Origin: a virus
Virus genome (UHGV): UHGV-0292054
Length of the DNA stretch: 10,649 bases
Direction: 5' to 3' (one strand)
The number at the start of each line of letters is the position of its first letter. Position 1 is the first letter of the stretch. The notes under the pieces are model-generated. The model made no database searches, was not told where the DNA came from, and worked only from the letters and a program-made list of their open reading frames with translations. The position numbers and the translations under genes were made by a program. Positions 4,170 to 8,019 of this stretch are shown piece after piece.

Positions 4170-4199
4170 AAAAAGCAAAAAAATAGCACCCAAAGGTGC
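4170..4199 (-). terminator. Putative rho-independent terminator ending the cargo operon (minus strand)
   Basis: GCACC-CAAA-GGTGC hairpin at 4186..4199, followed on the minus strand by a T-rich run (plus-strand aaaagcaaaaaaata at 4170..4185). Lies just downstream of the stop at 4211. Confidence 0.45.
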
Positions 4200-4210
4200 C
4201 ACTTTGATGA

Positions 4211-4783
4211 TTAATTTTTATTGTCGCCAGAAGGTTTATTGTTGCTTTTGAACAAACCACTAACAACAAACCCAACCAATCCCACAATACTCACAGTTGT
4301 GGTTCCCATAAGCGCAATGATAATTGTTTCTGGTGGATCAAAATCTTTTTTCAATACATACATAAATATGACCCAGCCGACAAAACAACACCAAACAATC
4401 ATGAATTGATATGTTTTATCAGCCATAGTTCTACGGAGCTCATTGTCCGTAAGCAGGCCGTCGGTTTCCGCATTTTTTCTTTTGGTTTCTGCCTGTACGC
4501 TTTCAAGGTTAGTGCTTATAGTTTCAACACAGCGACTCAATTCAGCAATTTGAAAATTAAGACTGGATAAATCCAAACGCTGCATGGTCGCAGCATCCTC
4601 TTCTTCCTTTTGCATTTCATCAACAGCGTCCTCAACAGACTCAGGCTCATGAGATTCTTCATCCCAACAGCCCTCATCTCCCAAAGCCGCAGAGGCAGTT
4701 ATCAGATTCTGCTCAGCTTGCTGCAATCGTCTGAGAAGGTCTTTATCAAATTCAGCTGTCACTTTCTTATTATCGTCAGGCAT
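4211..4783 (-). CDS. Hypothetical membrane protein, 190 aa: acidic/coiled-coil-like N-terminal domain plus two C-terminal hydrophobic helices; candidate toxin/effector of the cargo module
   Basis: ATG at 4783..4781. Hydrophobic stretches QFMIVWCCFVGWVIFMYVL and TIIIALMGTTTVSIVGLVGFVVSGLF; acidic segment DEESHEPESVEDAVDEMQKEEED. AT-rich relative to the flanking phage genes. No homologue recalled. Confidence 0.6.
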   Translation of the reverse strand: MPDDNKKVTAEFDKDLLRRLQQAEQNLITASAALGDEGCWDEESHEPESVEDAVDEMQKEEEDAATMQRLDLSSLNFQIAELSRCVETISTNLESVQAETKRKNAETDGLLTDNELRRTMADKTYQFMIVWCCFVGWVIFMYVLKKDFDPPETIIIALMGTTTVSIVGLVGFVVSGLFKSNNKPSGDNKN

Positions 4784-4787
4784 AAAA

Positions 4788-4809
4788 AACCCCGTACATA
4801 GACGGGGTT
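4788..4809 (-). terminator. Intercistronic terminator-like hairpin (possible attenuator) between the two cargo genes
   Basis: Perfect 8-bp stem AACCCCGT / ACGGGGTT with a 6-nt loop, followed on the minus strand by a U-run that ends at the ATG of the downstream gene (4783). The only purine-rich candidate SD (GGGG) is inside the stem. Confidence 0.45.
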
Positions 4810-4823
4810 ATCTTAATTCGGAC

Positions 4824-5294
4824 TCATAGTCCGATGCAATTGCTATCGCCGTGTAGCAGCTTTTGATAGTAATCCTGAATAACGGAATCAGGAATGATAT
4901 CCATACGACTATCCATTGCTTGCTTCCAAGGAGTACCTTCACGATGTGTGAAAGCAGATAAATCCTCAGCGGTATATTTACCGTAAACGTTATAAACGTT
5001 CTGCAGCAACTGCTCAGTCATAGGGTCAAACTCCTGAGAAATTGCCGATGGAACTTGTATTGGTTGTGTTATGGGACTACGGCCATAAACTTTAAGATAG
5101 TTATACAGAACTGGAACCACTGGACCATAACGCCATGCACAAACTGGTGTCGTTAACAAAGGCGTCCCTTTGTAACCCAGATTTATACCATGTGCTATAT
5201 AGGTCAGCTTTTGTGCCTGCATCTGGGTGATTGGCATACCAGCCGCGCAAGCAAGTTCTATAAACTTATTCGCGATGTTCAATGGGCTGTACAT
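4824..5294 (-). CDS. Panacea/DUF4065-like protein, 156 aa (PanA/SocA-type candidate antitoxin or sensor)
   Basis: ATG at 5294 preceded by AAGGAGG 6 nt upstream; the track start at 5345 is a GTG and was rejected. The motif QKLTYIAHG...G.PLL...AWRYGPVVPVLY resembles the conserved core of PF13274 as I remember it. Sits directly upstream of the membrane-protein gene. Confidence 0.55.
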   Translation of the reverse strand: MYSPLNIANKFIELACAAGMPITQMQAQKLTYIAHGINLGYKGTPLLTTPVCAWRYGPVVPVLYNYLKVYGRSPITQPIQVPSAISQEFDPMTEQLLQNVYNVYGKYTAEDLSAFTHREGTPWKQAMDSRMDIIPDSVIQDYYQKLLHGDSNCIGL

Positions 5295-5511
5295 ACTCAA
5301 CCTCCTTTGCTGTCCTCTTATGTCACGAAAAGCAACCGAGAACACTCAATTTTTACCTATACCCGAGCCTTCAAGCCTGGAATTGTAAACGCTATATCTT
5401 AAGCATACTCAACATTGCGCGCGGAGTATAAATTTGATAGTGAGCATACACAATCAATAAACCATATATTTTTATAGAAATATACATTTATAGCATCTTT
5501 CCAGATTAAAG

Positions 5512-5531
5512 TACTGTATATAAAAACAGTA
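5512..5531. promoter_or_regulatory. LexA (SOS) box
   Basis: TACTGTATATAAAAACAGTA has CTGT-N8-ACAG with an AT-rich spacer, 18/20 matches to the consensus TACTGTATATATATACAGTA. Lies between the A stop (5572) and the cargo operon start. Confidence 0.65.
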
Positions 5532-5555
5532 TAATGATTTTTATCACACTTGCAA
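5528..5555 (-). promoter_or_regulatory. Putative sigma70 promoter for the cargo operon (minus strand), overlapped by the LexA box
   Basis: Minus-strand reading gives TTGCAA (5555..5550), a 16-nt spacer, then TATACT (5533..5528). The -10 overlaps the LexA box, the usual layout of SOS-repressed promoters. Confidence 0.4.
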
Positions 5556-5571
5556 CGCTGTTCATTTCAGT

Positions 5572-7754
5572 TTATATGAATCCCGGCCACTCATCAGCGA
5601 CCGGATACGTGAATTTTTTCCCGTCATAATTTACTGTTGCCCCACGCGCCAGCGCCTCAAGCTCCCATCGCTGCGGCCTGATACCGTTCTGAGCAAGGTC
5701 AACGCGGATACGGGTGATTTGCATTCTTTCCGACCGGGTCAGTCTGGCCGATGGTGCAATTTCATGTGGTTTTAACGGGCTTCCGTTTCTTTGCTGACGG
5801 TTTGGTCTTCTCAGGCCGTGTTTTAATGCGCTTCTGAGCGCCCTCACAACCTCCGGGTCATTCCATTCGATAACACCGTCATCAACCAGATTAAGCACTG
5901 CTGCGGCGTGCTCAGAAGGTGTGGGAGCCGGTAACGAAGTATCACCACCGTTGAGCTTTCCACAGTTATTGACAGGACTCCGAGGCGCGGCGATGCCGCT
6001 TTTTAAAGTCAAAGGCTCAACGACCGGAACTTTCGGCACAATGCGCCAGTCCGTCGTTCTGGTGATATGAATATGACGCGCGCCGAGATGCGGCGCGTAA
6101 ATGCCGACCACTCTCTCGACTTCTTCCTCGTACTCGTTAACTTCATCCGACGGGCTACGGGCGACTCTGACAGTCTGGCAATCGCGCGGAACATTTGCCC
6201 CACCCTGCGCACTGATATACAACGCAAAATCGCCACTGTCTGCGGCAGCGCGTGCAGCCTCGACGCGTTCGTCAAACTCATCAGCAATGCTGACGCCCAT
6301 GCAGTAACAGCCGCGGCAGTATCTTTCAGAGGTCTGCCGGTATCGTTATCGAGCTGACCATCCAGTGCATAGCCGTCGATGTTTTTTGAGATGTATTTCG
6401 CGATATACCCCGCAGCACCGCCCCGATTAAGGTGTTTTGCCTGAAAACGGTTTCGCGCTGCTCCTCTTTCGTCGCCATCCTCTTTGAGCGCATAGCGACG
6501 CATGATTTCGATAATCTGGTTACGCTGGCGCGAATTACAAAAAAGCATCATATGCCAGTGCGGCGTTCCGTCGTGGTGTGGCTCGACGACACGCAAACCG
6601 TAGACCTGTAAATCATTATCCTTGAATGCCGTGCGCATCAGGCTCCAGATGCGGCAGAGATAACGCTGCGCATCCTTTGGATTAAATGCCTCATCGTTCC
6701 AGCCGTGATTAAGCTGAACGGTTTTACTTTCGCCTTTTCTGACCTGACGAGTCGGGTGATACTTTGACGGCGCAGTCAGCGTGATAAACATCCCCACATC
6801 ACCCTCTGCGGCGGCGTAACGCTCAATACCGGCAATGGTGTTCATCAGCTCCATCCGGCGAATTTCAGGATTAGAAATACTGCCCATCACCTTACTGATA
6901 AGGTCGATGCGCTCGCCGGTTTCCCTGTTTTCAAGGTCACACGATTTAAGAAATTCCAGATTTGCCTGGCGGCGCGCACGCACATCACGAATGGCGTGTT
7001 TACTGGCATAAGGAGAACGGTCTTTATTGACCTCCCCGACAGCTATCAGTAACGCTTCATGCCAGCGCATACGCTGGCCTTTAAGCTGATGAGTCCACCA
7101 CTCATCGTTAAACAGACGGGCAATGGCAGAATATGCCTGCCTCGTGGTCATCTGCCCTTTACGGTATTTTTTCCAGTAGAGAGGGGAAATATTGAAAGCA
7201 CGTGCAGCGCCAGCAACATGACCATAGAGGTGAGCCTGCGCCTCATCCGTAAACAGCGATTCTTTTTCGCCATGCGCATCCACCCAGGCATCGCAGAGTT
7301 CCTCATACATCATGAAAAGCTGCGATGAGATACGGGCGGCAAACTTTTTCAGCTCCTTGTCATTCATCCCCGGCAGACGCGCATAATGGTCACGCTCTGC
7401 CAGAAACAGCAACGACGCGTCGGTGTTCATTTCATGGCGCTGATTCACACGCTCAATGCGCGGCCATAAACGACGCTGAAAAGTGGATGTGAGAAAATAA
7501 AACCCGTGCACCGGGCTTTTATTGCGCCGGATGTAGTCATAGCGTGAAGTAAACAGCGAGCGCAAAAAGTAAGGCAGGCGGTTAATCGTGGATAAAACAC
7601 CTTGCACCTGACGCATCTCGTCACGTGTAAGGGGTCTTTCGCGCCCGACAGCCTCGCGTGGCGCGTTCCATGCATAAGCACCGGTAAGCGCCTTACCGGT
7701 GCCTGCGGCAAATGCTGACGGAGGGACAAAACGCCCGGAGGCTTTAACGGCCAT
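5572..7754 (-). pseudogene. A: Replication initiation endonuclease gene A (P2 gpA family), interrupted by a frameshift or small deletion near 6295..6310
   Basis: Two overlapping minus-strand ORFs in different frames (6009..7796 and 5572..6300) both match P2 gpA: the N-terminal part MAVKASGRFVPPSAF...AGYIAKYISKNIDGYALDGQLDNDTGRPLKDTAAAVTAWAS and the C-terminal part GVSIADEFDERVEAARAAADSGDF...PGFI. The 93-aa tail of the long ORF is the out-of-frame reading of the C-terminal part. ATG at 7754 chosen over the TTG at 7796. Combined length is about 727 codons against about 761 recalled for P2 A. Confidence 0.7.
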
Positions 7755-8019
7755 ATGAGCCAAAAGCCTCTGAACAACGCTTGCTGAGTTGCTCAACCTG
7801 CACGTTTAAATCAGCAAAAGACTTTGCGCTTCCGGTCAGAATATCGTGATGCATCAGGCCTGAAACGAGCTGGCTTAATTTCGGGTAATAACCAACCACC
7901 GCCAGCCATTCCTGACCGGCGTTTTTACCGCTTTCAGCTCTCTTTTTCTCGTGGAGAATAAACTGAAAGCTGTCACTGGTAACGACATAACGTTCGCCAA
8001 TTTCAATACGAATACTCAT
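7744..8019 (-). CDS. Small early-operon protein, 91 aa (position of P2 orf83)
   Basis: ATG at 8019 overlaps the upstream stop (ATGA); ends 11 nt inside the A start. Typical coupled small ORF of the P2 early operon. Confidence 0.55.
   Translation of the reverse strand: MSIRIEIGERYVVTSDSFQFILHEKKRAESGKNAGQEWLAVVGYYPKLSQLVSGLMHHDILTGSAKSFADLNVQVEQLSKRCSEAFGSYGR

Follow-up and report, generated by a model that had tools for sequence, protein, structure and literature searches.

The window analysed here, a 10,649-nt stretch of the virus genome UHGV-0292054, carries on its minus strand a toxin-antitoxin (TA) gene pair: a PanA antitoxin gene followed by a gene for a putative membrane toxin. The 40-nt gap between them (4823..4784) appears to form a composite junction. 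With moderate confidence, it is read as an intrinsic terminator whose hairpin also closes the Shine-Dalgarno (SD) sequence of the toxin gene, combined with a weak nested promoter that would supply the toxin mRNA. The elements concerned are the following:

4824..5294, minus strand: PanA antitoxin gene, 156 amino acids, a stand-alone Panacea domain
4834..4839, minus strand: candidate -35 element TTGCAT, overlapping the Asn-Cys-Ile codons of PanA (AAT TGC ATC)
4810..4815, minus strand: candidate -10 element TAAGAT, 18 nt downstream of the -35 element and ending directly at the 5' arm of the stem
4788..4809, minus strand: terminator-like hairpin with a perfect 8-bp stem and a 6-nt loop (terminator scan and folding)
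4803, minus strand: predicted transcription start, a G, seventh nucleotide after the -10 element and seventh of the eight nucleotides of the 5' arm
4790..4793, minus strand: SD-like GGGG in the 3' arm, 6 nt upstream of the AUG
4784..4789, minus strand: U-run UUUUUU, 6 nt including two Us of the stem, abutting the toxin ATG
4211..4783, minus strand: membrane toxin gene, 190 amino acids, homolog of the PanT toxins of type 'T3'

The intergenic hairpin and the toxin Shine-Dalgarno sequence

As RNA, the hairpin consists of a 5' arm AACCCCGU (4809..4802), a loop CUAUGU (4801..4796) and a 3' arm ACGGGGUU (4795..4788); on the minus strand of the DNA the same parts read AACCCCGT (4809..4802), CTATGT (4801..4796) and ACGGGGTT (4795..4788). 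The stem includes five G-C pairs and the hairpin has a free energy (dG) of -12.2 kcal/mol. Folding of a 91-nt RNA places it in both the minimum free energy and the centroid structures, with z = -3.5 relative to dinucleotide shuffles, and the terminator scan of the window lists the site on the minus strand.

The cassette is present in only 11 of 5,426 complete E. coli genomes. Since these copies are near-identical and useless for covariation, junction loci were taken from elsewhere, namely viral contigs, metagenomes, GTDB genomes and a large protein collection. They provide 27 distinct long-gap junctions (gap 40-47 nt) from Escherichia, Salmonella, Buttiauxella, Pantoea, Enterobacter, Serratia and metagenome or viral contigs, together with six distinct short-gap junctions (gap 18-25 nt). 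Subsets of the long-gap junctions were used for covariation (n = 20), for terminator scores and SD accessibility (n = 22), for scoring with a position weight matrix (PWM; n = 23) and for the comparison of PanA codons (n = 21).

All 27 long-gap junctions keep the same order of C-rich arm, loop, G-rich arm and ATG, with stems of 8-11 bp and loops of 3-7 nt in the relatives. Stem variants include CCCCGU/ACGGGG, CCCCAU/AUGGGG, UCCCGUU/AACGGGA, CCCCGC/GCGGGG and GCCUCGC/GCGAGGC. Among the aligned junctions, 99.4% of cells form standard pairs, and both-sided, compensatory changes occur at eight of the ten stem pairs (22 cells). None of 500 shuffles reaches the observed percentage of pairing, the number of both-sided pairs or cells, or the covariation score, and slid registers pair at only 33-52%. 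This covariation is seen at pairwise nucleotide identities of 49-98% in the flanking PanA gene. In Buttiauxella, the hairpin, U-run and ATG are identical to the window base for base, though the toxin is only 75% identical. On these comparative grounds, the hairpin is a real and evolutionarily conserved structure.

The window has the parts of a Rho-independent terminator, for which a G+C-rich stem of about 5-14 bp, a loop of 3-8 nt and a U-tract right behind the stem are expected. A U-run of 4-8 nt is present in every long-gap junction but L010, and is short or interrupted in L022 and L023. Of 22 junctions scored as terminators, 21 have a positive score; the exception is again L010, where an 11-bp stem is kept and the U-tail is absent. 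The hairpin may be described as a conserved, canonical intrinsic-terminator-like structure, at which transcripts presumably terminate. The U-run doubles as terminator tail and as spacer between the SD sequence and the AUG. A bidirectional terminator was considered and rejected: the tail on the plus strand, ATCTTAATTC in the window and CAATAATAA-like elsewhere, is not T-rich.

The GGGG at 4790..4793 is the only SD-like stretch within reach, with no other up to 27 nt from the AUG. Across the long-gap junctions it is always the 3' arm that is G-rich (GGGG, GGGA or GAGG), 6-11 nt before the AUG, and this polarity never flips. On modelled read-through RNA (-150..+60), the probability that the G-run is unpaired is 0.000 at all 22 loci. 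In the long-gap junctions, 14-17 nt separate the PanA stop codon from the stem that follows it and, to judge from ribosome footprints, a ribosome terminating at that distance would not open it. Because a hairpin of -12 to -22 kcal/mol closes the SD sequence and the PanA stop is distant, read-through RNA alone would yield almost no toxin. According to this folding model, the hairpin sequesters the toxin SD on any transcript arriving from upstream. An earlier note, made from the letters of this DNA alone, had described a GC-rich 8-bp stem, a 6-nt loop, a U-run and an abutting ATG in the 40-nt gap, had placed the sole SD-like GGGG inside the stem and had proposed RNA folding as a check; the sequence and the folding results bear it out in all of these respects.

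Hairpins were also noted at other positions in related cassettes. At a distant PanA-toxin pair (L132, 2164..2220), a 12-bp hairpin without a U-tail, GCCACUCCCUUU-GAAA-AAAGGGGGUGGC, lies right before the toxin start, again with a G-run in the 3' arm; here SD occlusion without termination may have arisen independently. In lambdoid-type cassettes lacking the intergenic hairpin, a hairpin is located right after the toxin stop (L002, 1348..1378; also L026, L031 and L051). Its antisense sequence, ATAACCCGTATATGTACGGGTTATTTTT, is identical at about 26 of 29 positions to the intergenic terminator of the window, ATAACCCCGTCTATGTACGGGGTTTTTT. This 3' hairpin probably terminates a convergent prtN-like gene, and the two hairpins may have a shared origin or be similar by coincidence.

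A promoter-like block nested in the junction

A second conserved pattern extends from the last PanA codons to the foot of the stem. TTGC is invariant across the long-gap junctions, where the candidate -35 element reads TTGCAT, TTGCAA, TTGCCA or TTGCAC. Positions T1, A2, A5 and T6 of the candidate -10 element are likewise invariant (27 of 27), and positions 3 and 4 vary, giving TAAGAT, TAATAT, TATCAT, TATTAT, TAGAAT, TAAAAT, TAACAT and TATGAT. The spacer between TTGCnn and TAnnAT is 17 or 18 nt, and the distance from TAnnAT to the stem is -2 to +1 nt.

Within the PanA coding sequence, the residue before the cysteine varies (N, S, A, T, V or I), and the seven codons used for it (AAT, TCT, AGT, GCT, ACT, GTT and ATT) all end in T. 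The cysteine codon of long-gap PanA genes is always TGC, whereas other invariant residues (Y, D, G, L) wobble freely. In 21 genes with a median pairwise nucleotide identity of 56%, the third base is invariant at only two of 149 degenerate PanA codon columns; these two codons are adjacent and spell TTGC. Judged by this pattern of conservation, TTGC and TAnnAT are under selection at the nucleotide level. RNA pairing, in a helix extended to the U-run and AUG, was rejected as the main cause of TAnnAT conservation: the pairing registers differ between the window (UAAGA/UUUUA) and L016 (UAU/AUG), and no compensation is possible for the changes at positions 3 and 4.

A simple sigma-70 weight matrix selects the TTGC/TAnnAT block as the best site in 23 of 23 junctions, and the hexamers of relatives match the consensus at up to five of six positions (TTGCCA for the -35 element; TATTAT, TAAAAT, TAGAAT and TAATAT for the -10 element). 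The predicted start (+1) is the sixth to ninth nucleotide of a 5' arm of 8-11 nt, lies 7-8 nt past the -10 element and is a purine that follows the C-run. This purine is G except in L007, where it is A with a compensating change in the 3' arm. A transcript initiated there would lack the C-run and therefore could not form the hairpin; it is predicted to have a leader of 20-28 nt comprising the SD sequence, a U-rich spacer and the AUG. On RNA beginning at the predicted +1, the mean probability of an unpaired SD is 0.39 (range 0.03-0.76; 22 loci). The block fits a sigma-70 promoter of presumed activity and start site. This suggests that the toxin has a promoter of its own, which the hairpin may insulate from upstream transcription.

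PanA (RefSeq WP_000287234.1, 'Panacea domain-containing protein') matches Pfam PF13274 (SocA/Panacea, DUF4065) with 65.1 bits against a cut-off of 25.7, over profile positions 2-113 of 113, and is 45% identical to the validated PanA WP_000287252.1. The toxin has a charged, variable coiled-coil N-terminal half and two C-terminal transmembrane helices; profile searches gave no significant family match, similarity to DUF2975 being weak. Over the C-terminal half it is 44% identical (E = 4e-22) to the toxins of the short-gap cassettes, which a phage record annotates as PanA and PanT. Given these identities of 45% and 44%, the window pair is a diverged homolog of the validated membrane-toxin PanAT, and the 190-amino-acid protein would, by analogy with its homolog (PMC8832971), be a toxin neutralised by PanA. 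The two-helix domain (...GTTTVSIVGLVGFVVSGLFKS) is nearly invariant across 31 homologs, in which 33 columns are invariant, indicating clear purifying selection. Alignment of the start methionine across relatives supports the annotated start. Among 74 loci, each one with sufficient DNA on the upstream side has a PanA gene immediately before the toxin homolog. Since the toxin gene is under selection, the toxin must be expressed by some route.

Weighing the explanations of the junction

In the composite mechanism proposed here, a strong promoter of the cassette itself, near 5453..5425, would give rise to the upstream transcripts, with a probable contribution from the P2 early operon, which runs through gene A in the same direction. 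They would encode the antitoxin and meet the intrinsic terminator at 4809..4784. On any RNA that reads through, the toxin GGGG would be locked in the 3' arm and the toxin left untranslated. The toxin would be transcribed from the weak nested sigma-70 promoter, with its -35 element TTGCAT in the last PanA codons and its -10 element TAAGAT at the stem. By starting at about 4803, after the C-run of the 5' arm, its mRNA would carry no hairpin, escape termination and present, in a leader of 20-25 nt, an open SD sequence and a U-rich spacer. The net effect would be a fixed toxin output, insulated from the stronger and variable transcription of the antitoxin.

The composite mechanism is favoured because it accounts for the hairpin, the polarity of its arms, the U-run abutting the ATG, TTGC, TAnnAT, the spacer and the distance from the -10 element to the stem; it also explains how a toxin gene under purifying selection is expressed behind a closed SD sequence. 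In its boldest form, a 'self-bypassing terminator', a segment of about 60 bp would silence all upstream transcripts and only the locally initiated toxin mRNA would escape; this form is put forward tentatively, its probability being a little short of even. The earlier note had proposed that the hairpin lowers toxin expression through both termination and occlusion of initiation. Structure and conservation argue for both effects, although its picture of attenuated read-through seems incomplete in view of the TTGCnn-N17/18-TAnnAT block. The same note was right to see a putative toxin in the membrane protein, which belongs to a validated membrane-toxin family and has its PanA antitoxin encoded upstream, and the likeness that it drew to control in TA and abortive-infection operons has a precedent in the intra-operon terminator of HicAB (PMC11878559).

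Several observations weigh against the proposed mechanism. The promoter of the window is weak by consensus, with a -35 element matching at three of six positions, a -10 element matching at four of six (including the key A2 and T6) and an 18-nt spacer, a length within the 17 +/- 1 bp of sigma-70 promoters. Its PWM score is unexceptional in AT-rich sequence, 3.7% of shuffles reaching the mean score and 14% the lowest, and the promoter scan of the window does not list the nested site, which is below its threshold; the case for a promoter therefore rests on the conservation pattern. Even on RNA starting at +1, the SD sequence of the window is only 0.08 open, and moving the start 3 nt upstream allows a partial hairpin to re-form and close it, so that thermodynamic support for the bypass is moderate. 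Moreover, the absence of the U-tail in L010 means that termination is not universal, and the 27 junctions are phylogenetically related, so their invariance is not equivalent to 27 independent observations.

The main alternative, in line with the earlier note, is a bicistronic operon in which the toxin is made only from minority read-through and is poorly translated, through breathing of the hairpin or SD-independent, S1-mediated loading on the U-run and AUG, with TTGC and TAnnAT retained for another reason. The conserved hairpin, the terminator scores and the complete sequestration of the SD sequence are all in accord with such an arrangement, as are the largely unpaired U-run and AUG and the weakness and unexceptional PWM score of the nested promoter; intra-operon terminators that set a toxin:antitoxin ratio are also documented, as the abstract of the hicAB study indicates (PMC11878559). 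However, this explanation has no place for the two invariant wobbles, TAnnAT, the 17-18 nt spacer and the fixed distance from the -10 element to the stem. RNA pairing fails to supply a reason for TAnnAT, its registers differing between loci, and the PanA stop, 14-17 nt upstream, is too far away for a terminating ribosome to open the stem. We consider attenuation on its own unlikely, if worth serious attention. It is distinctly improbable that the hairpin serves only to terminate transcription of PanA and the phage early operon and plays no part in translation, in which case the toxin gene would stand apart and common descent would explain the G-run in the 3' arm. The scan places no other minus-strand terminator between gene A and the hairpin, and hairpins of this type occur only at the P2 position downstream of gene A. 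Nevertheless, the polarity of the arms is constant despite changes at eight of ten stem positions, the G-run keeps an SD-appropriate spacing of 6-11 nt with no alternative SD between hairpin and AUG, and L010 keeps its hairpin and GAGG without a U-tail, the stem being retained where termination is unlikely.

An element acting at the level of DNA, either a site of recombination or module exchange at which toxin and antitoxin partners or cargo cassettes are swapped, or an operator bound by a protein of the phage or host, would be compatible with the discordant identities of PanA and toxin (90% and 75% in L003, 53% and 61% in L020) and with the near-identical hairpin found in inverted orientation 3' of the toxin in short-gap relatives. 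What the compensatory changes preserve, however, is pairing and not sequence, a sign of a folded single strand, and the U-run and abutting ATG are orientation-specific features of RNA. In addition, the junction has neither repeats nor recombinase genes associated with it, and DNA binding is not expected of stand-alone Panacea domains (PMC10440598). The probability of such an element is very small. That of a chance inverted repeat is negligible: lenient terminator-like matches are indeed common in the window (29 found, 12.4 expected), but covariation across 49-98% identity of the flanking PanA gene and the identical Buttiauxella hairpin already refute it.

Prophage setting, related junctions and significance

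The cassette lies in a P2-family prophage, with the PanA/PanT pair flanked by replication gene A and the portal gene. The RefSeq annotation of an identical copy from E. coli runs through integrase, C-like repressor, Cox, gene A (replication endonuclease), 'Panacea domain-containing protein', 'DUF2975 domain-containing protein', portal, terminase and capsid genes. Both cassette genes are on the minus strand, with the PanA stop TGA at 4826..4824 and the toxin ATG at 4783..4781. All long-gap loci with enough flanking DNA are in P2-like prophages, with a co-directional gene A upstream and/or a portal gene downstream; no short-gap locus has this gene A/portal setting. As the terminator scan of the window finds no minus-strand terminator between gene A and PanA, the hairpin is the first terminator-like site for polymerases leaving the phage early operon. 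Three further features of the cassette are:

5417..5453, minus strand: candidate main cassette promoter, with TTGTGT (5453..5448), a 17-nt spacer, TATACT (5430..5425) and the block CCGCGCGC (5424..5417)
4819..4833, minus strand: small hairpin CGGACUAUGAGUCCG, whose 3-nt loop contains the PanA stop UGA (folding)
4180..4205, minus strand: end-of-cassette terminator-like hairpin and U-run just past the toxin stop (scan and folding)

The arrangement TTGnnn-N17-TATAAT/TATACT followed by CGCGCGC is common to nearly all long-gap loci, and the site at 5453..5417 is a good candidate, on this sequence evidence, for the main cassette promoter. The GC-rich block CCGCGCGC occupies the discriminator position, which hints at stringent or growth-rate control of the antitoxin. 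Many relatives have a second promoter-like site of the TTGAC(A/G) type nearer PanA, degenerate in the window. In the region 5500..5556 (minus strand), between gene A and the PanA promoter, a further promoter-like sequence, TTGCAA-N16-TATACT (5555..5528), is found; it overlaps an AT-rich inverted repeat, TACTGT...ACAGTA, and is partly conserved in the closest relatives, L003, L007 and L008. The small hairpin at 4819..4833 sits in the spacer of the candidate internal promoter. It was rejected as a core element, being confined to close relatives, with a compensatory change in L008 (GGUCU/AGACC). The hairpin at 4180..4205 has 11 pairs followed by TTTGCTTTTT in the scan. Paired GCATG-like motifs, such as TGCATGAATCCGCATGAT and GCATGGATTCGCA, occur within the first 60 nt or so past the toxin stop in L009, L010, L011, L013, L014, L016, L017, L020, L023, L062, L063 and L065 but are absent from the window; a conserved phage site close to cos is one possible identity for them, and a site of protein binding another.

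Gene A (5572..7839, minus strand) has an 85-nt deletion at about 6291..6297 relative to the otherwise 99.98% identical RefSeq copy L001. The resulting frameshift splits it into two open reading frames (6009..7796 and 5572..6300), so that this prophage copy may be replication-defective. A DinI-family gene lies between gene A and PanA in L157, L159 and L168, and the hotspot has DUF4145, AIPR, KAP NTPase and N6-methyltransferase genes among its downstream neighbours, as fits a variable cargo or defence hotspot. Among the defence models of PADLOC-DB 2.0, PanA has no match and the toxin only a non-significant one (E = 0.052); a possible defence role of the cassette is suggested only by its location in the P2 cargo hotspot. 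Rfam 15 gives no family at the gathering threshold anywhere in the window.

The six short-gap junctions, which include the validated pair, jointly lack the hairpin, TTGC and, at the equivalent position, TAnnAT. Their cysteine codon is TGT, preceded by A, C or T, and an SD-like stretch is exposed in most of them (AGGGA in four, AAAGG in L069). These cassettes carry PanA WP_000287252.1, the validated accession, with toxins WP_000019186/7, neighbours of the validated WP_000019185.1 in the RefSeq annotation. Distant PanA genes are accompanied by similarly built two-helix toxins, with genes that overlap or abut (gap -29..+6) and no hairpin; the composite junction is therefore clade-specific and not a general PanA feature. 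The junction takes three forms among homologous PanA-toxin pairs. The genes may overlap, or a short gap may leave the SD sequence open; the form seen in P2-like prophages combines a terminator whose stem holds the SD sequence with a nested promoter-like block.

Terminators within TA operons have been noted in other contexts. In the abortive-infection system ToxIN, as Fineran and colleagues reportedly described in 2009, a Rho-independent terminator between the toxI repeats and toxN limits toxin transcript levels. The terminator again lies between antitoxin and toxin parts, although that system is of type III, with an RNA antitoxin; we know of no promoter nested in the ToxIN terminator. In hicAB, a type II TA pair of IncI2 plasmids, according to the abstract of Lin et al. 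2025 (PMC11878559), a G/C-rich hairpin with a U-tract between the genes sets the expression ratio. There the toxin gene comes first, and termination raises the toxin:antitoxin ratio, whereas in the window the antitoxin comes first and would be favoured; that abstract describes no nested promoter or SD-in-stem design. Toxin promoters inside antitoxin genes are exemplified by p_axe (Boss et al. 2013, PMC3760812), a verified sigma-70 promoter within the axe antitoxin gene that drives txe, produces a toxin-only transcript and is not autoregulated. With a -35 element matching at three of six positions, a -10 element TATGAT and a 17-bp spacer, it resembles the candidate of the window in quality and in its location in antitoxin coding sequence. 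However, p_axe starts about 110 bp upstream of txe and has no terminator, whereas the predicted start in the window is inside the terminator hairpin, only 20-25 nt from the AUG.

The validated E. coli pair of Kurata et al. 2022 (PMC8832971), PanA WP_000287252.1 and PanT WP_000019185.1, belongs to toxin cluster T3, has the antitoxin gene before the toxin gene with a 22-nt gap, and encodes a pore-forming, membrane-depolarising toxin. It shares with the window the gene order, the stand-alone Panacea antitoxin and a toxin with a charged N-terminus and two C-terminal transmembrane helices. It differs in its 22-nt gap, exposed AGGGA SD sequence, absence of a hairpin, cysteine codon TGT and lack of TAnnAT, and is found in lambdoid and other contexts. 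Both PanAT papers (PMC8832971, PMC10440598) propose Panacea as a sensor; they do not address transcriptional architecture and neither mentions a terminator. While intra-operon terminators of TA systems and toxin promoters inside antitoxin genes are already known, what appears to be new is a junction design specific to one clade of a known TA family; the design is well supported and its nested promoter putative. A 2026 preprint, as summarised, deals with genome-wide coupling of bacterial promoters and terminators (bioRxiv 10.64898/2026.08.19.745784), the general class to which the junction would belong.

The synonymous changes AAT to AAC and TGC to TGT would alter the -35 element without altering PanA. 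If confirmed, the junction would be a concrete, evolutionarily supported case of promoter-terminator coupling, and synthetic biology could perhaps use it as a small insulator. Dozens of unrelated toxins have PanA antitoxins as partners, and the design found in P2-like prophages would be a compact example of how a mobile element insulates a lethal gene from strong neighbouring transcription and yet expresses it. Transcription of toxin and antitoxin would be uncoupled, the antitoxin being supplied by a strong promoter with a GC-rich, discriminator-like block and by early read-through from the phage and the toxin by a constitutive, insulated, weak one. Were stress or infection by another phage to shut down the antitoxin promoter, the toxin could be set free while its own synthesis stayed the same.

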